64,000 nt of DNA from Candidatus Omnitrophota bacterium (GTDB lineage: Bacteria > Omnitrophota > Gorgyraeia > Gygaellales > Profunditerraquicolaceae): the NCBI GenBank assembly GCA_026387265.1, contig JAPLLZ010000029.1, positions 1,064 to 65,063 on the forward strand. Direction: 5' to 3'. Below, piece by piece: positions 8,113 to 63,479 of this stretch (position 1 is the stretch's first letter; each line of letters opens with the position of its first letter). Under the pieces are notes generated by a model. The model had not been told where the DNA came from, ran no database searches, and saw only the letters and a list, made by a program, of their open reading frames with translations. The position numbers were made by a program, and so were the translations under genes.

Positions 8113-8140
8113 TATCCGCTAACGTTTCAGTGGCGGATAA
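8112..8140. repeat. CCGCC-type hairpin repeat, copy 1
   Basis: TTATCCGCTAACGTTTCAGTGGCGGATAA; its reverse complement ATCCGCCACTGAAACGTTAGCGGAT matches 26045-26071 (ATCCGCCACTGAAGCGTTGGCGGAT) at all but 2 positions. Confidence 0.6.
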
Positions 8141-12447: not shown

Positions 12448-12461
12448 ATTATAAAGGAACT

Positions 12462-12641
12462 TTCCGCCTCAGAAGCTATTTCAAAATTCTCTAGAATTTT
12501 GAAATATTCGGCGGAATAATCCTTACTCTTTTCATTCGTAAGGATTTCGCTAAACAAGAGCTAAGGGAGCTCAAATTCGCGGACACTCCAACAAGCTGGA
12601 GCTACAACTTACGTCGGCTGCGGCTTCCGTAAGTTGTCCGC
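12462..12641. repeat. Modular multi-hairpin repeat element, long copy (modules 1-4)
   Basis: Module 1 12462-12516 (TTCCGCC / TCAGAAGCT / 12-bp stem ATTTCAAAATTC / ATTC / GGCGGAA); module 2 12519-12545 (ATCCTTAC-N11-GTAAGGAT); module 3 12558-12572 (GAGCT-AAGGG-AGCTC); module 4 12579-12641 (GCGGACA ... ACAACTTACG-N14-CGTAAGTTGT ... TGTCCGC). Modules 1 and 4 recur at 40559-40674. Confidence 0.7.
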
Positions 12642-12663
12642 TCATTTAAGGAGGATTAATTCG

Positions 12664-16403: not shown

Positions 16404-17094
16404 AGAAATAATTAAAGTCAACTCGATTTGTAAGAGTTATCAGGATAACTTAACTAACCTGGAAGTATTAAAAAATATTAATTTTTCTGTTTTGGCGGGT
16501 GAATTCTTGGTAATTCAGGGGCCAAGCGGCGCAGGAAAGTCGACGCTTTTACATATTTTAGGCGGTTTGGATAATCCGACCCAAGGGAAAGTTTATTTTC
16601 AAGGAGCGGATATTTATGCCATAGATGAGAATAAGCGTTCTGCTTTGCGCAATGAGAAAATAGGTTTTGTTTTTCAGTTTTTTCATCTTTTGCCGGAGTT
16701 AAATGCTTTAGAGAATGTTTTGTTACCGGGAATTTTAAAATCCTGGTGGGATAGGAAAAAAAGCTTAGGCAAGGCGCTTGAACTTTTAGAAAGATTAGGA
16801 TTATCCTCCAGGTTAAAACATCGGCCGGGTGCTTTAAGCGGCGGAGAACAACAGAGAGTGGCGATTGCCCGGGCGTTAGTCAATTGTCCGCAGCTTTTAC
16901 TTTGTGATGAGCCTACGGGTAATTTAGATTCAGAGAATGGTAAAAATATCCTGCAGCTTTTAATTGAGCTTAACCGGGCTCAAAAGATTACCATTGTGAT
17001 GGTTACTCATGATAAAGATATTGCCTGTGGAGCCGGAAGAATTATTCATTTGAAGGATGGGGTTATTCTAGGAAATAATAATGATAAACACTAA
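16396..17094 (+). CDS. lolD: Lipoprotein-releasing ABC ATPase
   Basis: Walker A GPSGAGKST, signature LSGGEQQRVAIARAL, Walker B LLLCDEPTGNLD; overlaps lolE by 8 nt. Confidence 0.85.
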   Translation: MSEEIIKVNSICKSYQDNLTNLEVLKNINFSVLAGEFLVIQGPSGAGKSTLLHILGGLDNPTQGKVYFQGADIYAIDENKRSALRNEKIGFVFQFFHLLPELNALENVLLPGILKSWWDRKKSLGKALELLERLGLSSRLKHRPGALSGGEQQRVAIARALVNCPQLLLCDEPTGNLDSENGKNILQLLIELNRAQKITIVMVTHDKDIACGAGRIIHLKDGVILGNNNDKH

Positions 17095-17217
17095 ACCCGA
17101 AAAACGAAACTCTAAACAAACTCAAAATTCTAAACTCGAAACTCAAAACATTGGTTTAAAAATTTGAGTTTTGGATTTAGGATTTGTTTAGGATTTAGAG
17201 TTTAGTGTTTAGAGTTT
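17089..17217. repeat. Inverted heptamer-array element, copy 1
   Basis: Left arm of CNCTAAA/CTCGAAA-type heptamers (17089-17147), 15-nt centre, right arm of TTTAGRR/TTTGAG-type heptamers (17163-17217); begins in the last lolD codons, ends 4 nt before the ilvE SD. Confidence 0.7.
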
Positions 17218-17233
17218 ATTAAAGGAGGTAAGC

Positions 17234-26044: not shown

Positions 26045-26071
26045 AATCCGCCACTGAAGCGTTGGCGGATT
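26045..26071. repeat. CCGCC-type hairpin repeat, copy 2
   Basis: AATCCGCCA-CTGAAGCGT-TGGCGGATT; near-identical to the reverse complement of 8112-8140; preceded by tandem AGCAATTAAT x2. Confidence 0.6.
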
Positions 26072-26095: not shown

Positions 26096-26116
26096 TCCGC
26101 CATAAAACATGGCGGA
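26096..26116. repeat. 21-bp hairpin TCCGCCAT-AAAAC-ATGGCGGA (intergenic copy)
   Basis: Exact reverse complement of 36151-36171. Confidence 0.75.
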
Positions 26117-28296: not shown

Positions 28297-28980
28297 ATGG
28301 TTTATCTGATTAACATTTTAATTATATTGCTGGCGATTGCAGTAATTAAACTGGTGTTAATTTCTATCTTTTTCTATGCTGATATTAGGGCGGCGCAAAA
28401 AAGAGATCCTGCGGCGAAAAGTTTCTTAGAGATAATTTTACTTTATCCCGGGCTGCACGCTTTAGTTTATTATCGGATTGCGCATTTATTCTATGGAATA
28501 AGGTTATTCTTTTTAGCGCGCCTGTTATCTCAGGCCGGTAGGTTTTTTACCGGTATTGAAATTCATCCGGGAGCTAAAATCGGTAAACGTTTTTTTATTG
28601 ATCATGGGCTAGGAGTAGTGATTGGAGAGACGGCGGTTGTGGGTGATGATGTCCTGCTTTATCAGGGATCTACCTTGGGTGGAACCGGTATTGTTCAGGG
28701 TAAGCGCCATCCTACGGTTGGTAATAATGTGGTTATTGGAGCCGGAGCCAAAGTTTTGGGCAACATTGTTATCGGAGATAATTCTTATATTGGAGCAAAC
28801 GCAGTAGTGGTGAAAGATGTTCCGCCGAATTCTACAGTAGTGGGTGTTCCCGGTAGGATTACAAAACAGGATGGTAAGAAGATGGATGTCAGCCTGGATC
28901 ATGCGCGTATACTTGATCCGATTATGCAGACGATTGAAGAACTGCAGGATAGAGTTAAAGAATTAGAAAAGAATAAGTAA
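28297..28980 (+). CDS. cysE: Serine O-acetyltransferase
   Basis: [21 protein letters not shown], hexapeptide-repeat C-domain. ATG 28297 has a strong SD, giving an unusual hydrophobic roughly 25-aa N-terminal extension; GTG 28354 would give a canonical-length protein. Confidence 0.85.
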
Positions 28981-29113
28981 ACTCTAAACACGAAACCCTA
29001 AACTCTAAACAAACTCGAAACACTAAATCCGAATTTAAGAACTTACTTCTGAGTAATATTTGAGTTTCGGATTTAGGATTTGTTTAGGATTTCGAGTTTC
29101 GAATTTAGGATTT
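28979..29113. repeat. Inverted heptamer-array element, copy 2
   Basis: Left arm AAACTCTAAACACGAAACCCTAAACTCTAAACAAACTCGAAACACTAAATCCGAA, variable centre, right arm TTTGAGTTTCGGATTTAGGATTTGTTTAGGATTTCGAGTTTCGAATTTAGGATTT; fills the cysE-cysS spacer. Confidence 0.7.
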
Positions 29114-29120
29114 AATAATT

Positions 29121-35158: not shown

Positions 35159-36294
35159 GCGCTCAAATTTCTATAGTTAAGTGTGACAATTATGAGCCAG
35201 CTAAGGTCCAGCAAGCCATTCGGGATGCGCTTGGCCTTTTAGGCGGGATAACTAACTTCATTAAGCCGAATTCCAGGGTGTTGGTTAAGCCAAATCTTTT
35301 AATGTCTAAAGGCCCGGAATGTGGTATTACTACGCATCCGCAGATAGTTAGGGCAATTATCCAAATACTGAAAGAAATAAATTGTAAAGTTGTTGTTGGT
35401 GATGGGCCGAGCGTTTGGGGCGGATATATAGAAAATGTGGATGAGGTTTATGGAGTAACTGGAATTAAAAAAGTCTGTCAGGATGAGGATGTGCGCCTGG
35501 TAAATTTTGATAAACGCCGGATGCGCGATAAATTTCCTCTTACCGCACAGCTAGATGAGTGTGATCATTTAATTAATCTGCCTAAATTTAAAACTCACGA
35601 ACTTACTTTAATTACCGGGGCAATAAAAAATCTTTTTGGATTGGTCTCTGGCACCTATAAAACCGAACTGCATAAGAATTATTTTGCCCCGGCAGAGTTT
35701 GCTAAAATCTTGGTGGATATCTATCAGGAGGCAAAACCGGATTTGACGATTATTGACGGAATATTGGCGATGGAAGGCGATGGCCCGGCGACTAGCGGAA
35801 TACCCCGGGAACTTGGCCTTTTGCTTTGTGGGGCTGATTGTGTGGCGTTAGATACAATTGTCGCCAAAATAATGGGGATTAAACAAGAGGTTTTGACGAC
35901 TAAAGAAGCTGCTTTACGTAATTTAGGGCAGGCCTGGTTGGATAAAATAAAGATAGAGGGAGAGAATATCGATCGGTTAAATATCCGTCCGTTTATTCTA
36001 CCGAAAAATTCAGTTAAACTAACTACTTTACCTCCGATTATAACAAAAATATTTAAGTCTCTGGTTAGATATTATCCTTATTCATTGCGTTTAAAATGTA
36101 CGCGTTGCGGGCATTGTGTTAAGGTTTGTCCAAAGCAGTGCATTAGATTATCCGCCATGTTTTATGGCGGAAAGAAAAGTGGAATACAGATTAACTATCA
36201 TCAATGTATTGCTTGTTTTTGCTGTCAGGAAGCTTGTCCGGAAGCAGCTATAGGGGTAAGGAAGAGCCTTTTAGCTAAATTAATAGGGTTATAG
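35155..36294 (+). CDS. DUF362 domain protein with C-terminal 2x[4Fe-4S] ferredoxin domain
   Basis: DUF362-like core; CTRCGHCVKVCP and CIACFCCQEACP cluster motifs; carries the 21-bp hairpin in frame between the two clusters. Confidence 0.75.
   Translation: MSAQISIVKCDNYEPAKVQQAIRDALGLLGGITNFIKPNSRVLVKPNLLMSKGPECGITTHPQIVRAIIQILKEINCKVVVGDGPSVWGGYIENVDEVYGVTGIKKVCQDEDVRLVNFDKRRMRDKFPLTAQLDECDHLINLPKFKTHELTLITGAIKNLFGLVSGTYKTELHKNYFAPAEFAKILVDIYQEAKPDLTIIDGILAMEGDGPATSGIPRELGLLLCGADCVALDTIVAKIMGIKQEVLTTKEAALRNLGQAWLDKIKIEGENIDRLNIRPFILPKNSVKLTTLPPIITKIFKSLVRYYPYSLRLKCTRCGHCVKVCPKQCIRLSAMFYGGKKSGIQINYHQCIACFCCQEACPEAAIGVRKSLLAKLIGL
36151..36171. repeat. 21-bp hairpin TCCGCCAT-GTTTT-ATGGCGGA inside a CDS (in frame, SAMFYGG)
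   Basis: Exact reverse complement of the intergenic 26096-26116; starts on a codon boundary of ORF 35155-36294 and is exactly 7 codons long. Confidence 0.75.
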
Positions 36295-39451: not shown

Positions 39452-40551
39452 GCTATCGGCCCACCTGGGCGGAAGTCAACCTAAATTGTCTGGAGCATAA
39501 TTTTAAAGAGGTTAAGTCTCTTCTGCGTCCTGAAATTAAAGTTTTGGTTACCGTAAAAGCCGATGCTTATGGGCATGGTTTAATTCCGGTAGCCAGGAAA
39601 TTAGTTGCCTGTGGTTTGGGTTATTTAGGGGTTGCCTCTATAGATGAAGGGATAAAATTAAGAAGAGCCGGAATTAAAAAACCGATTTTACTTTTAGGGT
39701 TAGTTCTTAAAGAAGATATCAGCCCGCTTTTTACTTATCAGCTTATTCCTGCAGTTTGCGACCTTCAGTTAGCCTGTGCTATTAGTGTTAAAGCTCAAAT
39801 GCTTAGGCAGGTTATGCCGGTGCATATCAAAATCGATACCGGGATGGGCAGGATCGGGGTTTTGCCCAAGGAAGCCTTTAAATTAGTAACGGATATTCAC
39901 AAACTAAAGAATATACAGATCCAGGGGATTTTTACGCATTTTCCTCTTGCGGATTCCGACCGTAAATTTACTGCCAGGCAAATCAGTATATTTGATAAAT
40001 TAGTTGTGGATTTAAAAAATAGCGGGATAGGGATTCCTCTGGTGCATGCTGCCAATAGTATTGGTTTAATTAACCATCGTAACAGCCATTTTACGATGGT
40101 TAGGCCGGGATTGGTAATTTATGGTTTGTATCCTAAGAAAAATTTAGGCTTAAAATTGAAGCCGGTGTTGAGTCTTAAAACCCGCGTAGTTTTCATTAAA
40201 CAAGTTGGCTCGCATGTCGGTATAAGTTATGGGTTAACTTATGTAACGGCGCGGCCAACGCGGATTGTTACTTTGCCTATCGGTTATGGTGATGGTTACC
40301 CGCGCAATCTTTCCAATTTAGCCTGGCTTTTGATTGGTGGCCGGAGGTTTAGGGTTAGTGGTAGAGTTTGTATGGATCAAATTATGGTGGATGTCGGTAA
40401 TTTTAAGCCGAAAATCGGAGATGAGGTAGTCTTAATTGGTAAACAGGGTAAGCAACAAATTACCGCGGAAGAACTTGCGGAGTTATCCGGTACAATTTCC
40501 TATGAGATTGTTTGTGGTTTAGGGAGTAGAATTCCTAGGATTTATAGATAA
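39430..40551 (+). CDS. alr: Alanine racemase
   Basis: PLP-lysine motif VTVKADAYGHG, C-terminal beta domain (VCMDQIMVDV). Confidence 0.9.
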   Translation: MPNKNAIGYRPTWAEVNLNCLEHNFKEVKSLLRPEIKVLVTVKADAYGHGLIPVARKLVACGLGYLGVASIDEGIKLRRAGIKKPILLLGLVLKEDISPLFTYQLIPAVCDLQLACAISVKAQMLRQVMPVHIKIDTGMGRIGVLPKEAFKLVTDIHKLKNIQIQGIFTHFPLADSDRKFTARQISIFDKLVVDLKNSGIGIPLVHAANSIGLINHRNSHFTMVRPGLVIYGLYPKKNLGLKLKPVLSLKTRVVFIKQVGSHVGISYGLTYVTARPTRIVTLPIGYGDGYPRNLSNLAWLLIGGRRFRVSGRVCMDQIMVDVGNFKPKIGDEVVLIGKQGKQQITAEELAELSGTISYEIVCGLGSRIPRIYR

Positions 40552-40558
40552 CGAAAGC

Positions 40559-40674
40559 TTCGCCTCAGAATCTACACCAAAATTATCTGGAATTTTGGTG
40601 TATTCGGCGAAATTAATACGCAGACGGCCTAACGCCTACGACTTACGTCGCTTCCGCTTCCGTAAGTTGTCTGC
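40559..40674. repeat. Modular multi-hairpin repeat element, short copy (modules 1 and 4)
   Basis: Module 1 40559-40611 (TTCGCC / TCAGAATCT / stem ACACCAAAATT / ATTC / GGCGAA); module 4 40620-40674 (GCAGAC ... ACTTACG-N13-CGTAAGT ... GTCTGC); fills the spacer between convergent alr and lptG. Confidence 0.7.
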
Positions 40675-40677
40675 TTA

Positions 40678-41775
40678 TTAAGGTAGTTTTGAAATAAGAT
40701 AGAGGCTGCTGGATAGAATAATAATGTGGCTTAATGAAGCAGCCAGAATAGGCGTGATTAAACCGGATTTTCCTATAGCCAGGCAGATCGCATCCAGGAC
40801 ATAATAGAGAAAGCCCACGATAATTGAAACTCCGATAGAAGACATCCCCGTTGCGCGTTTACGCATCAGAAGAGAAAATGGTATTCCCAAAAGGATAATG
40901 ATGATACTGGTAAATGGTGAAGTGAAACGCTGATAAAGGTCGACCTTTAAATTCCTAATTACCGTAGTGGCTCCGCTTTTAGAGAGTATCCAGATATAGT
41001 CCTGCATTTGGCGGATATTCATTTGTTCCGGTTTTTGCCTTAAAGAGGCAAGATTTTCCGGGGTTTCCGGAATACTCATGATTTCTTCTTCCAAATAATT
41101 TGGCTCGTCAATTACCTGTCCATTGCTATCAAATTTATAAGTGATACTTTGCGAAAATCTCCACAGTCCATCTTGGTAGACTCCCCTAGTAGCGATGATT
41201 TTTTTAGTCAAATTCTGTTTTTCATCTTGCTCCAAAATGGTGATCCCTTCCATGGTTTTTGCAGCTGGTAAAAACCTGCTGATAAAAAATAATCTATTCC
41301 TCATACCGTAGAGCGTAAGGTTGGTGATTGCTTCATTTTTTTTAGGCTTACCTTTTGTGCCTTCTTCAATCTGGATTTTAATTTTTTGATTTTCGACAGA
41401 AGAGACAGGGACAAATCGGTCATTTACCCAGAATACTGCTAAGCTAATTAGTAAGCCAAAGATTAGGGCATTGCGGGCGATTTCAAATATACTTAAACCG
41501 CTTGAACGCATAGCAATAATTTCATTATTGTGGTTTAGTTTTCCGAAAGTATAAACCGTACTCAAGAGACAGGCAAAAGGGGAGACCTGCACAAACATAA
41601 TCGGCAGATATGAAACATAATAGCGTATCAGCAGCGCTAAGGTGGCTTGATGTTTTAATACTTCATCTAGATTAGAAAGTAGGTCGATAACGATATAAAG
41701 AAATAGAAATACAAAAATACAAGAAAAGAAAATATAAATAATTGATTTTAGGATATAGCGGTCTAAGATGCGCAT
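40678..41775 (-). CDS. lptG: LPS export ABC permease LptG
   Basis: LptF/LptG family: 6 TM with periplasmic insert; second of an overlapping pair. Confidence 0.8.
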   Translation of the reverse strand: MRILDRYILKSIIYIFFSCIFVFLFLYIVIDLLSNLDEVLKHQATLALLIRYYVSYLPIMFVQVSPFACLLSTVYTFGKLNHNNEIIAMRSSGLSIFEIARNALIFGLLISLAVFWVNDRFVPVSSVENQKIKIQIEEGTKGKPKKNEAITNLTLYGMRNRLFFISRFLPAAKTMEGITILEQDEKQNLTKKIIATRGVYQDGLWRFSQSITYKFDSNGQVIDEPNYLEEEIMSIPETPENLASLRQKPEQMNIRQMQDYIWILSKSGATTVIRNLKVDLYQRFTSPFTSIIIILLGIPFSLLMRKRATGMSSIGVSIIVGFLYYVLDAICLAIGKSGLITPILAASLSHIIILSSSLYLISKLP

Positions 41776-45524: not shown

Positions 45525-46898
45525 ATGGAAAAGATTTATTTAGCCTCCAATTCTAAGGCCAGAAAGAAATTATTAGAAAAATTTGGCCTGAAGTTTAAAA
45601 TCCTACCTTCTAAAGTTAAAGAGCAAACTCAACGCGGTAATTTATCATATCCTCAACTTGTGCAGAAGAACGCCCGTAAAAAAGCAGAAGAAGCAGCAGC
45701 TCGAGTAACTGGTGGAATTATTATTGCCGCCGATACTATTTGTGTGCAGAATGGTAAGATCTTCGGTAAACCGAAGAATATGGCAGCTGCCCGCCGGATG
45801 CTTCAACAATTATCCAGTAGGCCGCAATGGCTATACACCGGTTTGGCACTAATTAAAAAAACTAAAAGTAAACAAAAACTCCTGCTAGATTATGAAAGAG
45901 CAAGAGTTTATATGGATAAATTAAGCCCGGCGCAGATTGATAATTATTTTAAACAGGTTTCTCCTTTAGATAAAGCCGGTAGTTTTGATATCCAGGGCAA
46001 AGGGGCATTTTTTATTAAGCGAATCGATGGGTGTTTTTATAATGTAGTCGGACTGCCTTTGAGAAAATTATATCTGATGCTTAAAAAGTTTGATGTAAAA
46101 ATTCTTTCGTTTTTTTTAACGGCCACCAGTTGTTTATTAACTGCCGTGGTTTTGTCTGGCTGCTCTACGGAATATAATCTTGCTACTAAACAGGAGGAGA
46201 AATATTATTATAGTACGGATAAGGAAGTCCAGATGGGCCAGTCAATTAACCGTAGGGTAGAAAAAGAATTAAAATTTTCCGCAGATCCATTACAGCAAAA
46301 ACGCGTGGAGGATATTGGCAAAAAGGTAGCTGCCGTCAGCGATAGAAAAGAGATTGATTATTATTTCCGGGTTTTAGATGATGATGAGGTTAACGCTGTA
46401 TCTTTACCCGGAGGGTATGTTTATATTAACAGTGGATTGTTGGATAAAGTGGCTAATGATGATGAGTTGGCCTGTGTTTTAGCACACGAGGTAGGCCATA
46501 TTGTTGCCCGGCATAGCATAAAGAAACTTCAGGCGATGCAGAGTTATTCTATTTTAAGAGTGTTAGTGGCTGTAGCTCCTGGTGCTTCAGAGGTAGGCAG
46601 CGCCGCAGATGCTGCTTTTACTCAATTTTTGCTTGGCTATAACCGCGAAGATGAGCTATTAGCAGATCAACTGGGTGCCCGTTATGCTAAATTGGCTGGT
46701 TATGATCCACATAGCATGATTACTTTTTTAATTAAGTTGCAGGATATCAACCGTAGGATGCCGCTTAGAGAACAGTCGTATTATAAGACCCACCCTTATG
46801 TTCCTGATCGGATTAGAGTAGTTAAGCAGGAACTGGGGGAGCAGATTGATTTTGGGGACTACATCAATATTGAACAAGAAAGCCACCAGCCCCGTTAG
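45525..46898 (+). CDS. Maf nucleotide pyrophosphatase domain fused in frame to an M48 metalloprotease lipoprotein
   Basis: Residues 1-190 Maf-like (IYLASNSKARKKLLE, AGSFDIQG, YNVVGLPL). An internal ATG 46077 opens the lipoprotein signal MLKKFDVKILSFFLTATSCLLTAVVLSGC, followed by an M48 domain (HEVGHIVARH, THPYVPDRI). No stop codon lies between the two parts. Confidence 0.75.
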   Translation: MEKIYLASNSKARKKLLEKFGLKFKILPSKVKEQTQRGNLSYPQLVQKNARKKAEEAAARVTGGIIIAADTICVQNGKIFGKPKNMAAARRMLQQLSSRPQWLYTGLALIKKTKSKQKLLLDYERARVYMDKLSPAQIDNYFKQVSPLDKAGSFDIQGKGAFFIKRIDGCFYNVVGLPLRKLYLMLKKFDVKILSFFLTATSCLLTAVVLSGCSTEYNLATKQEEKYYYSTDKEVQMGQSINRRVEKELKFSADPLQQKRVEDIGKKVAAVSDRKEIDYYFRVLDDDEVNAVSLPGGYVYINSGLLDKVANDDELACVLAHEVGHIVARHSIKKLQAMQSYSILRVLVAVAPGASEVGSAADAAFTQFLLGYNREDELLADQLGARYAKLAGYDPHSMITFLIKLQDINRRMPLREQSYYKTHPYVPDRIRVVKQELGEQIDFGDYINIEQESHQPR

Positions 46899-46954
46899 AG
46901 ACAGGCTGCCGAAGGCAGCCGTTAGTTACCCTAGGTGTCTTGTCTCTAACGGGG
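46890..46954. repeat. 64-65-bp palindromic element (CCCCGTTAGAG...CTCTAACGGGG), intergenic copy
   Basis: 14-bp terminal inverted repeats CCCCGTTAGAGACA / TGTCTCTAACGGGG, internal hairpin GGCTGCC-GAA-GGCAGCC. Contains the upstream stop TAG (46896-46898) and ends on the G of the downstream GTG start. Confidence 0.75.
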
Positions 46955-48069
46955 TGAATAGAATAATTGCTCTCTTGGTAATTTTTTTGTTAACCTTTTG
47001 CCGTTTACCGGCAGGAGAGATTTCCGATAAGAAATATATGAAAAATAATGTGGCGCATTTAGACAAGGTAAATTTTGATAACCCTTTTGGGGTTTTGGAA
47101 TTTTTGCATTGGAATCATTCTTGGAATAATTATAAATATTCCAGCCAACGCGATTTGGAAGAAGTGGTTTCCCTTATGCGTGATGCTGGTGTGGGTTGGG
47201 TAAGGTGGGATTTTTTATGGTCAGATATCGAAGCTCAGGAGGGGAAGTTTGACTTTACTAAATATGACAATATTGTTAAGGTGCTTAAAAATAATGATAT
47301 TCATATTTTAGGTGTTTTACATTACAGTACAAATTGGGCTTCTTCCTGCGGCGAATGGAATTGTCCGCCTGAAGATAACCAGAAATTCGTAAATTACGCA
47401 AGCAAAGTTATCCAGCGCTATAAGGATCAAGTGAAGTATTGGGAGGTTTGGAATGAACCGGATTCAGCTATCTACTGGAAAAAGCAGGATAGTCTTAAGT
47501 CTTATTGTATTCTATTGAAAGAGGTTTATTTGGCAGCTAAAAAAATAGACCCTGATTGTAAGATTCTAAATGGCGGCATTGCCAATGGTTTAGTTAGTAT
47601 TAATCATTTGTATGATAATGGAGCAAAAGATTATTTTGATATATTAAACCTGCATTTTTTTGAAAGCCCTTTACATGGAAAAAATGGTATAAAGGCGGTA
47701 ATTAGTTATCCTAATCTTGCTTATAAAATAATGGTGCGTAATGGTGATGCGCATAAGAAAATCTGGATAACGGAGATTGGCTGCCCGGGGGTAGAATCCG
47801 GATTAAAGACAGATAATTGGTGGATGGGAGAGAATCCTGATGAGCGCCAACAGGCTGAATGGGTAAAAGAAGTTTATGGCGAATTGTTAAAAAATCAGCA
47901 GGTGGAAAAAATTTTCTGGGCCTTTTTCCGTGATACCAAGGAACATTGGGGTAATGGTGTTGATTATTTTTGTTTAGTGCGTTGGGATTATTCCACCAAG
48001 CCTTCCTTTGAAGCTTATCAAAAGCGTTATCAGGAGTGGAAAAAGAATAAAGCCGTAAGGCCTAAGTGA
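46954..48069 (+). CDS. Secreted clan GH-A (TIM-barrel) glycoside hydrolase-like protein
   Basis: GTG 46954 gives the signal peptide (M)NRIIALLVIFLLTFCRLPAG; YWEVWNEPD (acid/base Glu) and KIWITEIG (nucleophile Glu) signatures; the track start 46846 reads through the repeat. Confidence 0.65.
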   Translation: MNRIIALLVIFLLTFCRLPAGEISDKKYMKNNVAHLDKVNFDNPFGVLEFLHWNHSWNNYKYSSQRDLEEVVSLMRDAGVGWVRWDFLWSDIEAQEGKFDFTKYDNIVKVLKNNDIHILGVLHYSTNWASSCGEWNCPPEDNQKFVNYASKVIQRYKDQVKYWEVWNEPDSAIYWKKQDSLKSYCILLKEVYLAAKKIDPDCKILNGGIANGLVSINHLYDNGAKDYFDILNLHFFESPLHGKNGIKAVISYPNLAYKIMVRNGDAHKKIWITEIGCPGVESGLKTDNWWMGENPDERQQAEWVKEVYGELLKNQQVEKIFWAFFRDTKEHWGNGVDYFCLVRWDYSTKPSFEAYQKRYQEWKKNKAVRPK

Positions 48070-57492: not shown

Positions 57493-57573
57493 TGCGGGAG
57501 GAGGGAGTTGAACCCTCAAGGGTTACCCCACACGCTTCTGAGACGTGCGCGTATGCCATTCCGCCACTCCCGC
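57493..57573 (-). tRNA. tRNA-Leu (anticodon CAG)
   Basis: Hand-folded: acceptor GCGGGAG/CTCCCGC, D arm GCG-GAATGGCATA-CGC, anticodon arm CACGT-CTCAGAA-GCGTG, 13-nt variable arm, T arm GAGGG-TTCAACT-CCCTC, discriminator A; CCA not encoded. Confidence 0.9.
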
Positions 57574-59289: not shown

Positions 59290-59710
59290 GGGGGTGAAAG
59301 GGTTCGACTTAAGATATGTCGCTTAAGAGCAGCATGCCGCGGATGTAAGGTTAGCCGCGTTAACAATCCTTGCACAATTCAAACGCAAACACAAAAACAC
59401 CAGTGTTCACAAACCGATTGGCAGCGTTACCGGGTTTTCAGCCGGTAGCATTTCCAGCTGGTTGCGTACCAGTCTTAGCGTTTAATTAAACGCTAAGCCT
59501 CTAGCTGTCCTGCCTACGGGATAGATTAGAGCTCAAGTAGGATAGTCCCGGCGGTTAGCCTTCCAAACCGGGGCAAAATCGAAAAGGCTGCATCTTGCAA
59601 ATCCTGCCGGGTAGGAGTTGCAAGGTTAAGAATAAATTACCAGGCTAAGCATGTAGCGGTTTTTAGGTGATTACTTAAGGACGGCGGTCCGATTCCGCCC
59701 ACCTCCACCA
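59290..59710 (+). ncRNA. ssrA: tmRNA (SsrA)
   Basis: 5' GGGGGTGAAAGGGTTCGAC; 3' tRNA-like end GGACGGCGGTCCGATTCCGCCCACCTCCACCA. The acceptor pairs GGGGGTG/CACCTCC with the G3-U pair. Tag ORF 59385-59489 has its stop in the loop of the CTTAGCGTTT/AAACGCTAAG hairpin. Confidence 0.9.
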
Positions 59711-60901: not shown

Positions 60902-61689
60902 GTTCAATTGGCGTTTTTGATTCTGGAGTAGGCGGGCTTACAGTAGCCAGAGAAATAATCCGTCAACTACCCAATGAAAATATAGTTTACTTTGGTGATA
61001 CTGCTCGCGTTCCTTATGGGATTAAGTCGCCTCAAACCGTAATCCGTTTTTCTATTGAAAATATTTTATTTTTATTAAAGCACGATGTTAAATTAATTTG
61101 CGTTGCTTGTAACACTGCATCTAGTTTTGCGCTTCCGGTAATCCGGAATAATTTCCGTGTTCCGATTATCGGCGTAATTACCCCTGGAGCCAGAGAAGCA
61201 GTTTATGCTTCACAAAATAAGCGTATTGGAGTAATCGGGACCAAGGGAACGATTAAGAGCCGTACATATGAAACAGAAATTAAACAGCTTGATCCTAAAG
61301 TTAAAGTAACGGCTGTGGCTTGTCCTTTATTTGTTCCTTTTGTGGAGGAAGGCTGGCTTTCCGGAGAAGTAGTATTAAACGTGGCCAGGCAATATTTAAA
61401 ACCGCTGCGCCAGGCTGGTGTGGATACAGTAATCTTAGGCTGTACACATTATCCTTTGCTTAGGCCGGTAATTCAGGAAGTTTTGGGCAAAAATGTTATT
61501 TTGATTGATTCTGCTAAGCAGGTAGCTTTTGAAATAAAAAAGATTCTGACTAGTGAAGATTTATTTAATCGCGGCAAGGGCGGCAAACATAAATTTTACG
61601 TCAGTGATAATCCTGAATGGTTTAGTTCTCTAGCTCATCGGTTTATGGGGACTAAATTGATGAACGTAAAGAAGGTGGAAAATGTATAG
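60898..61689 (+). CDS. murI: Glutamate racemase
   Basis: IGVFDSGVGGLTV, catalytic Cys motifs VACNTAS and LGCTHYP. Confidence 0.92.
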   Translation: MSSIGVFDSGVGGLTVAREIIRQLPNENIVYFGDTARVPYGIKSPQTVIRFSIENILFLLKHDVKLICVACNTASSFALPVIRNNFRVPIIGVITPGAREAVYASQNKRIGVIGTKGTIKSRTYETEIKQLDPKVKVTAVACPLFVPFVEEGWLSGEVVLNVARQYLKPLRQAGVDTVILGCTHYPLLRPVIQEVLGKNVILIDSAKQVAFEIKKILTSEDLFNRGKGGKHKFYVSDNPEWFSSLAHRFMGTKLMNVKKVENV

Positions 61690-62128
61690 CTTAAAAGTAC
61701 AGGGGACTTTTAGTTCTGCGCATAATTTAAGAGGCTATAAAGGTAAATGTGAAGATTTGCATGGGCATAATTGGGTAGTGGAGATAGTGGTTAAATCTAA
61801 GAGGCTAGATAATATCGGCATGGTTTTGGATTTTAAATTCCTGAAGAAAAAATTAAATGTTTGTTTAGAGCAGATGGATCATAAGTATCTTAATCAACTG
61901 TCTTATTTTAAAAAAGTAAACCCCGTTAGAGGCAGGGCGCCGAAGGTAACCGACGGCTGCCTGCGGCAGCCTGCCTCTAACGGGGTAAATCCAACCTCTG
62001 AAAATATTGCTAAATATGTTTATGATCAACTTAAATCTTCGATTCCTTTATTAAATTGTGTAACGGTCTGGGAAAATAGTACAAGCAGCGCTACCTATGA
62101 ACCTAGCCCTTCCTCGGGTAGGGATTAA
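61682..62128 (+). CDS. queD: 6-carboxy-5,6,7,8-tetrahydropterin synthase QueD, carrying a 23-codon repeat-derived insertion
   Basis: FSSAHNLRGYKGKCEDLHGHNW, MDHKYLN, NPTSENIAKY motifs; 148 aa versus the roughly 120 aa I recall as typical. Confidence 0.85.
   Translation: MYSLKVQGTFSSAHNLRGYKGKCEDLHGHNWVVEIVVKSKRLDNIGMVLDFKFLKKKLNVCLEQMDHKYLNQLSYFKKVNPVRGRAPKVTDGCLRQPASNGVNPTSENIAKYVYDQLKSSIPLLNCVTVWENSTSSATYEPSPSSGRD
61921..61984. repeat. 64-bp palindromic element (CCCCGTTAGAG...CTCTAACGGGG), copy inside queD
   Basis: Termini CCCCGTTAGAGGCAGG / CCTGCCTCTAACGGGG; the internal part (GGTAACCGACGGCTGCCTGCGGCAGCC) matches the reverse complement of the internal part of 46890-46954; flanked by GTAAAYCC 69 bp apart. 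Confidence 0.8.
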
Positions 62129-62149
62129 AGAATGAAAGGAAGGGCTGGG
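62102..62149 (+). repeat. Hairpin spanning the queD stop and the queC start
   Basis: CCTAGCCCTTCC (62102-62113) pairs with GGAAGGGCTGGG (62138-62149), including one T-G wobble on the + strand; the 24-nt loop contains the queD TAA; encodes the queD tail EPSPSSGRD. Confidence 0.5.
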
Positions 62150-62808
62150 TGAAGAGTAAAATTTCTAAGACTGCGGTAGTGCTTTTATCCGGCGGATTAG
62201 ATTCGGCTACAGCTTTGTATTTAGCTAAAGCTAAAGGATATAAATGCCACGCTTTAATTTTTGACTATGGGCAAAGGCATAAACAGGAAGTTATTTGTGC
62301 AGTAAAGATCGCCCGGGCCAGCGGCTGTGCTTACCGGATTTTAAAAATAGGATTTCCCTGGAAAGGTTCTGCGCTTTTAGATAAAAAAATTAATGTTCCG
62401 GGGGGAATTACCCAGGGCGTTCCGGTTACTTATGTGCCGGCGCGTAATATTATTTTTTTAAGTTTTGCTCTATCTATGGCAGAAGTAATTAAGGCACAGG
62501 CGATATTTATCGGGGCACACGCACAGGATTATTCCGGGTATCCGGATTGCCGGCCAGCTTTCTTTAAGGCTTTTATACAAATGGCTAAAGCTGGGATTGC
62601 CGCTAAAAATAGAATTAAAATTTTAGTTCCCCTTTTAAATATGAATAAATCACAGATTATTCGTTTAGGTAATAAACTTGGTGTACCATTTAGCCTTACC
62701 CGTTCATGCTATCGGGCAGGCAAAAAACCGTGTCAAAAATGCGATAGTTGTTATTATCGTGCTAAAGGTTTTAAGGAGGCGGGGCTGATAGATCCGTTAG
62801 TTAATTGA
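62149..62808 (+). CDS. queC: 7-cyano-7-deazaguanine synthase
   Basis: PP-loop AVVLLSGGLDS, C-terminal zinc Cys cluster CYRAGKKPCQKCDSC. Confidence 0.92.
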   Translation: MKSKISKTAVVLLSGGLDSATALYLAKAKGYKCHALIFDYGQRHKQEVICAVKIARASGCAYRILKIGFPWKGSALLDKKINVPGGITQGVPVTYVPARNIIFLSFALSMAEVIKAQAIFIGAHAQDYSGYPDCRPAFFKAFIQMAKAGIAAKNRIKILVPLLNMNKSQIIRLGNKLGVPFSLTRSCYRAGKKPCQKCDSCYYRAKGFKEAGLIDPLVN

Positions 62809-63479
62809 TTAAAGCCAGGATTTCCGAAGTATTCGATAGCGTACAAGGTGAAGGCCTGTATTTGGGAGAGAAGCAGATTTTTGTGCGTTTTTTTGACTGT
62901 AATCTCAGCTGCATTTATTGTGATACTAAGCTGGACCGGTTTACGGAGTATGAACCAAAAGAGCTTTTTGAAGAAATTAGCCTTTATCGCGATAAGTATC
63001 ATTCTATTTCTTTTACCGGGGGTGAGCCGCTTCTTTATGCGGATTTCTTGAAGGAGATCTTTAAGCTTACTAGTGGGCGTGGCCACCGGCATTATCTGGA
63101 AACAAATGGAACCCTGTTTTTTGAGCTAGAGAAATTAATCGACCATATTGATATTATTGCGATGGACTTGAAATTCCCCAGCTCATCCGGGATGGGTAAT
63201 CTTTGGCAATTACATCGTAAATTTTTAAAAATTGCCTCCAAAAAAGAAGTGTTTCTTAAAGCAATTATCTGTCAGGCGACTTATGAGGAAGATTTAAAAG
63301 AGGCTTTGGCGATAATTAAAGAAATAAGCCCGGCCAGCGTTTTAGTTCTGCAGCCGAATAGCTATGAGAATCAGGCGGTTTTACATGAAAAAATGATGAA
63401 TTTCAAAGAGATTGCTACACAACAGGGGGTTACCACTTGCGTTATCCCCCAGATTCATAAAATAATGGGGTTAAAATGA
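62805..63479 (+). CDS. queE: 7-carboxy-7-deazaguanine synthase (radical SAM)
   Basis: FDSVQGEG, CNLSCIYCDT cluster motif, FTGGEPLL. Confidence 0.85.
   Translation: MIKARISEVFDSVQGEGLYLGEKQIFVRFFDCNLSCIYCDTKLDRFTEYEPKELFEEISLYRDKYHSISFTGGEPLLYADFLKEIFKLTSGRGHRHYLETNGTLFFELEKLIDHIDIIAMDLKFPSSSGMGNLWQLHRKFLKIASKKEVFLKAIICQATYEEDLKEALAIIKEISPASVLVLQPNSYENQAVLHEKMMNFKEIATQQGVTTCVIPQIHKIMGLK

Follow-up and report, generated by a model that had tools for sequence, protein, structure and literature searches.

A miniature palindromic element inserted in frame in queD of an Omnitrophota bacterium and its relatives in other phyla

The window analyzed here is the whole 64,000-nucleotide stretch of DNA from a Candidatus Omnitrophota bacterium (assembly GCA_026387265.1, contig JAPLLZ010000029.1, positions 1,064 to 65,063 of the forward strand). 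Near its right end lies the queuosine-synthesis gene queD; downstream of it are queC (62149-62808) and a radical-SAM gene resembling queE (62805-63479). Within queD, positions 61915-61992 read GTAAA|CCCCGTTAGAGGCAGGGCGCCGAAGGTAACCGACGGCTGCCTGCGGCAGCCTGCCTCTAACGGGG|TAAATCC, that is, a palindromic element with a short repeat of the gene on either side, and the open reading frame (ORF) 61682-62128 stays open straight across the element. A first interpretation made from the letters of this DNA (the sequence-only reading) had proposed a palindromic insertion translated in frame at this place. The insertion is real, and its translation is the one given there. The features of the insert, of the other repeats named below and of the corresponding inserts in orthologous genes are collected in Table 1.

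Table 1. Features of the queD element, of two further repeat elements in the window, and of inserts at the same site in orthologous queD loci (MITE, miniature inverted-repeat transposable element; TM, template modelling score)
Sequence	Feature	Position	Strand or orientation	Remarks
Window	queD (6-carboxytetrahydropterin synthase) ORF, 148 aa, with both insertions	61682..62128	+	PF01242/PTPS, E = 3.7e-36; Foldseek to 4ntm, target-normalised TM 0.87
Window	Left copy of target-site duplication, TAAA	61917..61920		Target G before it at 61916; empty orthologous sites read AAAGTAAATCC
Window	65-nt palindromic MITE-like element	61921..61985		Translation PVRGRAPKVTDGCLRQPASNG
Window	Outer stem, left arm = terminal inverted repeat CCCCGTTAGAGGCA	61921..61934		Partner 61972-61985; helix 1, 95.8% paired
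Window	Inner hairpin A, GGGCGCC-GAA-GGTAACC, degenerate in window copy	61935..61951		Helix 2, 7/7 pairs changed on both sides across family
Window	Inner hairpin B, GGCTGCC-TGC-GGCAGCC, intact	61955..61971		Helix 3, 7/7 pairs changed on both sides across family
Window	Outer stem, right arm = terminal inverted repeat TGCCTCTAACGGGG	61972..61985
Window	Right copy of target-site duplication, TAAA	61986..61989
Window	Second copy of 65-nt element	46890..46954		Interior flipped; flanks CCAG / TGAA (no intact duplication)
Window	Unrelated 48-nt inverted-repeat element CCTAGCCCTTCC...GGAAGGGCTGGG at queD/queC junction	62098..62153		Element 62102-62149; duplication TGAA (62098-62101, 62150-62153)
L203	queD insert, 65 nt, both inner hairpins intact		As window	Duplication TAAA; codons GTA AAC
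L202	queD insert, 65 nt		Flipped	Duplication TTAA; codons GTT AAC
L147/L148	queD insert, 47 nt, A-rich body			Duplication TCAA; codons ATC AAT
L150	queD insert, 47 nt, A-rich body			Duplication TTAA/TCAA; codons GTT AAC / GTC AAT
L204/L205	queD insert, 44 nt			Duplication TAAA; codons ATA AAC (L204), GTA AAC (L205)
L207	queD insert, 62 nt			Duplication TAAA; codons GTA AAC

Divided into its segments, the insert reads GTAAA|CCCCGTTAGAGGCAGG GCGCCGAAGGTAACCGAC GGCTGCCTGCGGCAGCC TGCCTCTAACGGGG|TAAATCC. The palindrome had been described as 64 bp long (61921-61984). It is a palindrome, but its length is 65 nt; the G at 61985 belongs to the element and not to the duplication, and the same is true of the CC at 61921-22. 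Likewise, the two GTAAAYCC repeats lying 69 bp apart are present as described, but they do not represent an 8-bp duplication. The true duplication is TAAA (4 bp), although a 5-bp duplication (GTNAA) around an element one base shorter fits equally well. The 65-nt element and the 4-bp duplication together lengthen queD by 69 nt, which is 23 codons. When E. coli QueD (4ntm) is aligned with the window QueD, it covers residues 8-73 and 103-139 and leaves approximately 25 extra residues between them. The protein had been noted to have 148 aa where about 120 are usual; the palindrome accounts for 23 of the extra residues, and the last 7 come from the separate 48-nt element at the 3' end of the gene (118 + 23 + 7 = 148).

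The element differs sharply in composition from the gene in which it lies, since its GC content is 71%, compared with 32% in the rest of queD and 39% in the whole window. Its arms of 33 nt each are 85% complementary, and the inner hairpin singled out in the sequence-only reading (hairpin B) is indeed present. Folded as single-stranded RNA, the palindrome gave -54 kcal/mol (z = -8.65), a value that none of 200 shuffled sequences equalled. Four copies of the terminal 16-mer lie in the window, at both ends of two elements, whereas 0.26 occurrences were expected and none of 100 shuffles reached four.

We then compared the site in 87 queD loci, namely 80 metagenome loci and 7 obtained from protein look-ups; the best homologues of the window QueD were Omnitrophota QueDs. 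Most of the loci were uninterrupted and read ...TTT AAA AAA GTA AAT CCN ACN... (KKVNPT), and the empty site (GTAAAT or ATAAAT unbroken) was found in L206, L146 and about 70 other orthologues. The 23 codons do interrupt a motif that is contiguous in most other QueDs, as had been supposed. The window gene equals this empty site with the element and an additional TAAA inserted, and the pattern GTAAA|element|TAAAY is found in the window, L203, L204, L205 and L207. Element bodies of 44, 47, 62 and 65 nt all lie at this one site. In L122, L124 and six protein clusters only a 9-nt 'N-G-V' footprint is seen. None of the 87 loci carries a frame-breaking insert, and among the 120 best homologue clusters 21 have an insert here, every one in frame and open.

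As shown in Table 1, the duplicated bases follow the local synonymous codon (TAAA, TCAA or TTAA), which indicates independent staggered-cut insertions at one nucleotide. Judged from these alignments, the same nucleotide of queD was invaded independently at least three times, in both orientations and by several subfamilies. The sequence-only reading had held that a loop shared by diverse orthologues would speak against a mobile element. Such a loop is in fact shared by the 21 clusters, but the inserts are not ancestral. Because their duplications, orientations and subfamilies differ, the presence of the loop in many orthologues strengthens the interpretation as a mobile element. We therefore think that the 69 extra bases of queD are very probably a single copy of a transposable element that is palindromic, very small and non-autonomous. 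It resembles a MITE, has an interior like that of a REPIN (a doublet of repetitive extragenic palindromes, REPs), and is tolerated by the gene in frame.

In order to find further copies, we scanned reference genomes, one per species, for the pattern CCCCGTTAGAR-N(18-48)-YTCTAACGGGG. At least 120 loci were obtained, whereas about one would be expected by chance according to our own estimate. The counts below refer to the elements in these listed loci and in the window, with one mismatch allowed per end. The family has the termini CCCCGTTAGAR and YTCTAACGGGG (ends CCCCGTTAGA / TCTAACGGGG). It comprises 156-160 elements of 25-100 nt, mostly 40-69 nt, among the matches listed together with the window. 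The hosts among the matches listed are Omnitrophota, many classes of Patescibacteria, Planctomycetota (Pirellulales, Phycisphaerae, Sedimentisphaerales), Desulfobacterota, Nitrospirota, Riflebacteria, Cloacimonadota, one Methanosarcinales metagenome-assembled genome (MAG) and one Clostridia MAG. The absence of copies other than the one at 46890 had been named as a reason to give up the idea of a mobile element; more than 150 further places in many phyla are now on record. The queD insertion taken alone is an ordinary consequence of a wider element family.

An exact 4-bp repeat flanks 77 of 156 copies, as against 9 of 615 displaced control 4-mers. The duplicated bases are variable (TTTA, TAAA, TCAA, TTGA, TGAA, TTCA, CGAG, CCCG and others), and when the 77 targets are oriented they give G 52, T 68, A 47, A 63 and A 69, that is, GTNAA. 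The outer 10-11 bp are nearly invariant, and the interiors are diverse, forming 116 clusters at 70% identity. Two copies lie in the 64 kb of the window, several MAGs contribute two or three loci, and 2-5 copies lie within some loci. Clusters of 3-5 elements within a few kb were observed in L118 (1581-2906) and L002 (3151-7043), with near-identical neighbours at 1581-1645 and 2083-2147 of L118; this suggests local bursts or tandem gene-family targets.

The second copy in the window is, as had been claimed, the same element with its interior in the opposite orientation, since its identity to the queD copy is 85% when it is read as the reverse complement and 73% when it is read directly. It had been called intergenic, but it is not wholly so, because its left terminus contains the stop codon of the ORF 45525-46898; it supplies the TAG (46896-46898) and the last two residues of that ORF. 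At its other end, the last G together with the flanking TG forms GTG (46954-46956), a possible start codon for a downstream ORF whose product would begin with a signal peptide like that of a lipoprotein (MNRIIALLVIFLLTFC...).

Structurally the family resembles MITEs. Its members are small and non-coding and have terminal inverted repeats with outer arms of 14-16 nt complementary to each other, and a duplication of fixed length is found together with filled and empty sites (TAAA at queD). Copies of the 65-nt class from Omnitrophota, Planctomycetota and Patescibacteria differ in the sequences of their hairpins but share one geometry: an outer stem of 14 bp and two 7-bp hairpins with 3-nt loops, separated by a 3-nt linker. 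Hairpin A, degenerate in the window, is intact in L203 (GGACACC-GAA-GGTGTCC). When 17 copies from several phyla were aligned, positions 1-10 and 56-65 were nearly invariant. The Y-shaped fold was 83% paired, compared with 71% in column shuffles and 35-47% when the partners were slid, and changes on both sides of a pair numbered 71 against 27 expected; all 14 pairs of the inner hairpins covary.

The family was sought in other collections. In Rfam no family reached its gathering score for the element, which gave only generic miRNA-precursor hairpin matches far below gathering, and an Rfam scan of the whole window returned only a transfer-messenger RNA (tmRNA) and one tRNA. A literature search on the terminal sequences and on MITEs lying in frame in genes of Omnitrophota or Patescibacteria yielded chance primer matches and general papers on MITEs and on Rickettsia palindromic elements (RPEs) only. 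The family appears to be undescribed in the searchable literature. BLAST against plasmids of cultured bacteria gave no copies, only partial matches at chance level. Viral contigs contained three family matches only, so the family is not primarily phage-borne.

How are these elements moved? The comparisons of filled and empty sites show insertion at GTNAA with a 4-bp duplication, in both orientations and in repeated independent events; in-frame tolerance, vertical persistence and decay are shown as well. Insertion at GTNAA duplicates TNAA. A fixed-length 4-bp duplication from a staggered cut and conserved terminal repeats are the hallmark of DDE-type transposases, and we therefore suppose that such an enzyme may mobilise the element in trans. 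We searched 1.28 Mb of loci for a parent insertion sequence (IS), first with exact and then with relaxed ends; no two ends lying 0.3-6 kb apart and sharing a duplication enclose a gene there. The apparent distant pairs of ends were separate small elements. One unpaired end, in L046, adjoins ORFs that look by eye like ABC-transporter genes, with no transposase there. Because neither an autonomous element nor a transposase was found in these loci, the mobilising enzyme and its class are named conditionally. The ends of IS1380 and piggyBac elements begin with CC(C), are accompanied by 4-5-bp or TTAA AT-rich duplications and carry a TAGA-like motif near the tip. The junction TNAA|CCCCGTTAGA resembles them by a few bases only and serves as a lead; no transposase gene of the IS1380/piggyBac type was seen beside these termini.

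We considered whether the element moves instead as a single-stranded DNA hairpin, mobilised by an HUH/Y1 enzyme, as in the REP/REPIN system with its REP-associated tyrosine transposase (RAYT) or in IS200/IS605-like elements, or by another non-DDE enzyme; the in-frame consequences would be the same. The architecture invites this idea, as it consists of two inverted REP-like units, each with a conserved tag and a GC hairpin. The hairpin geometry is strictly conserved with compensatory changes, no IS partner turned up in the loci searched, and there is a short specific target pentanucleotide of the kind typical of IS200/IS605. However, Y1/HUH elements are not known to duplicate their target on insertion, whereas the flank repeats here vary in sequence and yet match each other, that is, they are true duplications. 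The family also lacks the GTAG/CGTC tag, and no Y1 gene flanked by half-elements was seen, although no systematic search for one was made. For the variable duplications above all, we rejected REP-RAYT and IS200/IS605 as the primary model and consider mobilisation of this kind unlikely.

The family fits into reading frames in a particular manner. When the 4-bp duplication is added, 106 of 156 copies have a length divisible by three (3n; p = 1e-18); counted by cluster the figure is 77 of 116 (p = 4e-13). The element lengths peak at 53, 59, 62, 65 and 68 nt. The left end, CCC-CGT-TAG, and the TAA of the right end have their stops in the same phase, so that only a single phase is lethal at both ends. 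With a GTAAA target the phase xxG-TAA is impossible inside a gene. The phase GTN-AAx remains, and V-N-P-V-R...S-N-G-V-N/K is consequently read. The general form of the in-ORF reading is V-x-P-V-R...S-N-G-V, and the PVR..SNG phase is used in 36 of 48 in-ORF readings. Insertion into GTN-AAx (Val-Asn/Lys) leaves a gene open by virtue of the 3n addition and the one shared stop phase, and the middle of the inserted peptide is rich in Gly, Arg, Ala and Pro encoded by the GC-rich hairpins.

In 39 of 122 copies the reading frame continues without a stop for 40 codons or more to either side, and all but one of these are 3n; copies read through in long ORFs number 29-39, about a third. Hosts confirmed by Pfam are an AIR-synthase-related (HypE-like) protein, IF-2, dihydroorotate dehydrogenase, FolD, Asd, a Mur ligase, Sua5, PrmC, a radical-SAM enzyme and V-ATPase subunit E, and SecA, DnaE, UvrA and CarB were recognised by eye only. 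The likeness to the behaviour of RPEs that had been suspected from one gene is therefore borne out by in-frame copies in many unrelated housekeeping genes. Some 15 further copies at gene ends supply the stop codon through the CCC-CGT-TAG phase. Of 83 copies that lie elsewhere than in a long ORF, 46 are 3n. In a set of 77 3n copies outside long ORFs, 44 have no stop codon on either strand, compared with 31.8 when the interiors are shuffled. The 3n bias outside ORFs and the decay in place, described below, suggest that copies in ORFs are trapped and that there is selection for frame neutrality at the level of the element itself, as we infer.

The fate of the insert within QueD can be considered from the closest relative, L201, which has 82% nucleotide identity in the flanks. 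The orthologous insert of L201 is still 69 nt long and open, but its left terminus is mutated (CTCTCCTAAAG) and its fold is reduced to -24.7 kcal/mol as against -54. Between the two genes the identity by codon position is.78/.74/.78 in the insert and.88/.95/.63 in the core, and the amino-acid identity is 57% and 87%, respectively. Since a decayed, weakly folding copy stays in frame in a conserved gene, the insert is presumably translated and neither excised nor bypassed; translation would give peptides that span KKVNPVRGRAPK or ASNGVNPTSENIAK. In the alignment H14, C23, H27, H29, D66, H67, T105-S106-E107 and E131 are invariant, and all of these except the T-S-E triplet we take to have catalytic or metal-binding roles. 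The AlphaFold2 model has a confident core, with residues 80-102 at a predicted local distance difference test score (pLDDT) of about 50, and superposes on E. coli QueD with a target-normalised TM of 0.87 and a root-mean-square deviation of 2.1 A. The expectation that the frame and the catalytic motifs are intact was thus confirmed, and most likely the insert is translated as a flexible surface loop of a QueD that still works, as far as the model indicates. An element in an ORF would be trapped, because only in-frame deletions are tolerated. It would then persist, decay in place and leave 9-nt footprints, for which L201, L122 and L124 may be examples, and a high occupancy of the queD site would follow from such trapping.

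We also weighed the idea that the hairpin is not translated, being cut from the mRNA and the ends religated, or being bypassed by the ribosome with the GTA-AAY repeats as take-off and landing codons. Identical GTA AAY codons do flank a very stable hairpin, and there is a superficial likeness to T4 gene 60. A skipped insert, however, would need neither 3n length nor freedom from stops, yet all queD inserts seen are in frame and open, and 3n lengths are strongly enriched throughout the family. In addition, the L201 copy keeps its frame although its left stem arm is gone and its folding energy is halved, the 9-nt NGV footprints are also kept in frame, and both orientations occur in queD (L202 versus L203), which would be intolerable for a strand-specific RNA signal. 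We therefore rejected a programmed bypass element, and consider any untranslated hairpin very improbable.

Still less probable is a native loop of Omnitrophota QueD, ancestral and non-mobile. Many Omnitrophota QueDs do have extra residues at exactly this position, and the 44-nt type (NPVRSGAPRRGTSNG) is common to a group of related sequences, which fits vertical inheritance there. But the same family lies in unrelated genes and intergenic DNA elsewhere, the flank duplications change with the codon and both orientations occur, the insert is far richer in GC than its gene, and there is no loop in the nearest relatives with an empty site (P0017, 92% identical apart from the insert). An assembly or binning artefact, such as a chimeric join or a short-read hairpin artefact, has next to no chance: palindromes that are perfect or nearly so can come from library artefacts, but independent assemblies (ENA, JGI, NCBI, Logan) carry family members at the identical queD position, and the ORF is open, the 4-bp duplication is clean and a diverged orthologous copy exists in L201.

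Several points nevertheless weigh against an inserted, frame-tolerated MITE-like element as the full account. About half of the copies, including the second one of the window, have no exact duplication. The covariation of the inner hairpins suggests a structural constraint that an ordinary MITE mobilised by a DDE enzyme would not need. The 1.28 Mb of loci yielded neither an autonomous element nor a transposase that has these termini, which is weak evidence because the search space is small. Translation of the insert and activity of QueD are deduced from the sequences and the model, and the taxonomic labels of MAGs may be partly wrong. Finally, the queD site is filled in 4 of 80 unbiased metagenome loci, with 2 more bearing footprints, whereas the remainder of these loci, about 360 kb, contains 3 unique elements. 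Recurrence at one site in queD is expected in kind, because the queD of the window, taken without its inserts, has four GTNAA sites of which only two are in the permissive phase, V37-K38 in a core strand and V79-N80 in a loop; the latter directly precedes the invariant NPTSEN motif and a helix. The window as a whole contains 632 GTNAA sites and two elements only. Random insertion and tolerance may not fully explain the occupancy of the queD site.

A bolder interpretation is that these are mobile hairpins adapted to ORFs across phyla. According to it, they would have their own GTNAA-recognising machinery, and their features, namely lengths in steps of three, freedom from stops on both strands, a single shared stop phase in the termini and GC-rich hairpins encoding flexible loops of Gly, Arg, Pro and Ala, would be adaptations to life inside the genes of gene-dense streamlined genomes. 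They would spread horizontally among co-occurring Patescibacteria, Omnitrophota and Planctomycetota, and they would act as a generator of surface loops in the housekeeping proteins of these bacteria. We put this forward tentatively and regard it as rather doubtful. If it were true, the approximately 50-fold over-occupancy of queD would mean targeted insertion or positive selection, beyond tolerance.

Other repeats lie in or near the same genes. The 48-nt element at the queD/queC junction was absent from the five orthologues aligned and occurs once in the window. It changes the C-terminus of QueD from YEE* to YEPSPSSGRD* (+7 residues) and abolishes the overlap of queD and queC, and its last G with the duplicated TG forms the GTG start of queC (62149-62151). 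Evidently this short loop of queD and the 3' end of the gene readily accept insertions. L158 has a related 48-nt copy, which is nested (2041-2088), and similar 'EPS...GRD' tails are seen in other QueD homologues. A third kind of repeat, hairpins of the form TCCGCC-N-GGCGGA, occurs three times in the window (26047-26069, 26096-26116 and 36151-36171; 0.03 expected), with a variant at 8114-8138. Among the 120 best QueD clusters, 18 carry one or two 15-nt units TCCGCC-nnn-GGCGGA in frame two codons upstream of the main queD site; they read F-SAAGG(SASGG)-KK and have no obvious flanking duplication (L125, L138, L192, L139). The protein P0009 carries both the palindrome-type and the TCCGCC-type insert.

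Elsewhere in the window an imperfect palindrome of about 135 nt is present in two copies (17085-17222 and 28978-29118; 78-86% identical), with arms made of TTTAGRG-like short repeats (AAACTCTAAAC... / ...GTTTAGAGTTTA). These may be another repeat-element family or paired terminators. The stretches 12454-12653 and 40550-40686 (repeat families D5 and D11), about 28 kb apart, are 77-81% identical over about 64 and 37 nt, and a hairpin (GAAATATTTCAAAATTC...GAATTTTGAAATA-like) forms locally in each. Conserved terminators, or the 3' ends of paralogous genes, are possible explanations. The tmRNA gene (165 bits, + strand; 59290-59710) and the tRNA gene (- strand; 57493-57573) lie just upstream of murI-queD-queC-queE, and the order smpB, amidase, murI, queDCE, queF and fumarase is common to the window, L201 and L205.

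The results bear on more than one gene. Selfish DNA read in frame within genes has been treated as peculiar to Rickettsia and a few genera, and is now found in a much smaller element with a clear signature of transposition, the termini of which are conserved across Patescibacteria, Omnitrophota, Planctomycetota, Desulfobacterota, Nitrospirota and others. In the housekeeping proteins of uncultivated lineages, such inserts explain differences in length and loops of low model confidence that were otherwise puzzling, and V-x-P-V-R...S-N-G-V offers a simple motif for annotating them. They also provide a natural experiment on the gain of protein loops, and may serve to mark horizontal exchange among ultra-small bacteria that occur together.

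Among known systems, some can be set aside quickly. An integron attC site has RYYYAAC on the 5' side and GTTRRRY on the 3' side; here the order is reversed, with GTTAGAG 5' and CTCTAAC 3' on both strands, and copies lie inside ORFs, so we rejected it. REPs are described as extragenic sequences with a GTAG or CGTC tag (PMC3733652). The present family is like REPs and REPINs in its similar size, its GC-rich hairpins within an AT-rich genome and its compensatory hairpin changes, and, like a REPIN, it is a doublet of inverted units that can fold as one long hairpin or two short ones. Unlike REPs and REPINs, which have no flanking duplications, it has the CCCCGTTAGA tag and a 4-bp duplication, and about a third of its copies are intragenic.

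Bacterial MITEs (Correia/NEMIS, ERIC, BOX, the Coxiella QMITE and the Anabaena MITEs) are sometimes intragenic and can form in-frame fusions (PMC10969869). The family shares with them the small size, the lack of coding capacity, the terminal inverted repeats, the target duplication and, counted over all genomes scanned, the many copies. Those MITEs, however, are usually restricted to a genus or family, mostly intergenic and usually provided with an identifiable parent IS, whereas no parent IS was found for this family in the loci searched, its termini (but not its interiors) are conserved across phyla, and two thirds of its copies are 3n.

The closest parallel in behavior is provided by the RPEs, which are about 150 bp long and number 44 copies in R. 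conorii, nearly half of them inside ORFs (PMC10969869). In both cases palindromes lie in frame in many unrelated housekeeping ORFs, and the peptides are judged compatible with the fold of the host protein. The present family is two to six times smaller than the RPEs and has clear terminal inverted repeats, a 4-bp duplication, a GTNAA target and lengths in steps of three, and it is spread across many free-living or episymbiotic uncultivated phyla, in contrast to one intracellular genus. No similarity in sequence to the RPEs is expected. The sequence-only reading was right to see such an element in a genome unlike that of the RPE hosts, and the family further spans many phyla and not this genome alone. 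The behavior itself is known. New relative to RPEs and MITEs are the small size, the defined target, the 3n lengths, the conserved Y-shaped structure and the spread across phyla. The family works like the RPEs but is not to be filed as one of them, being set apart by the described size and termini and by an Omnitrophota-like host.

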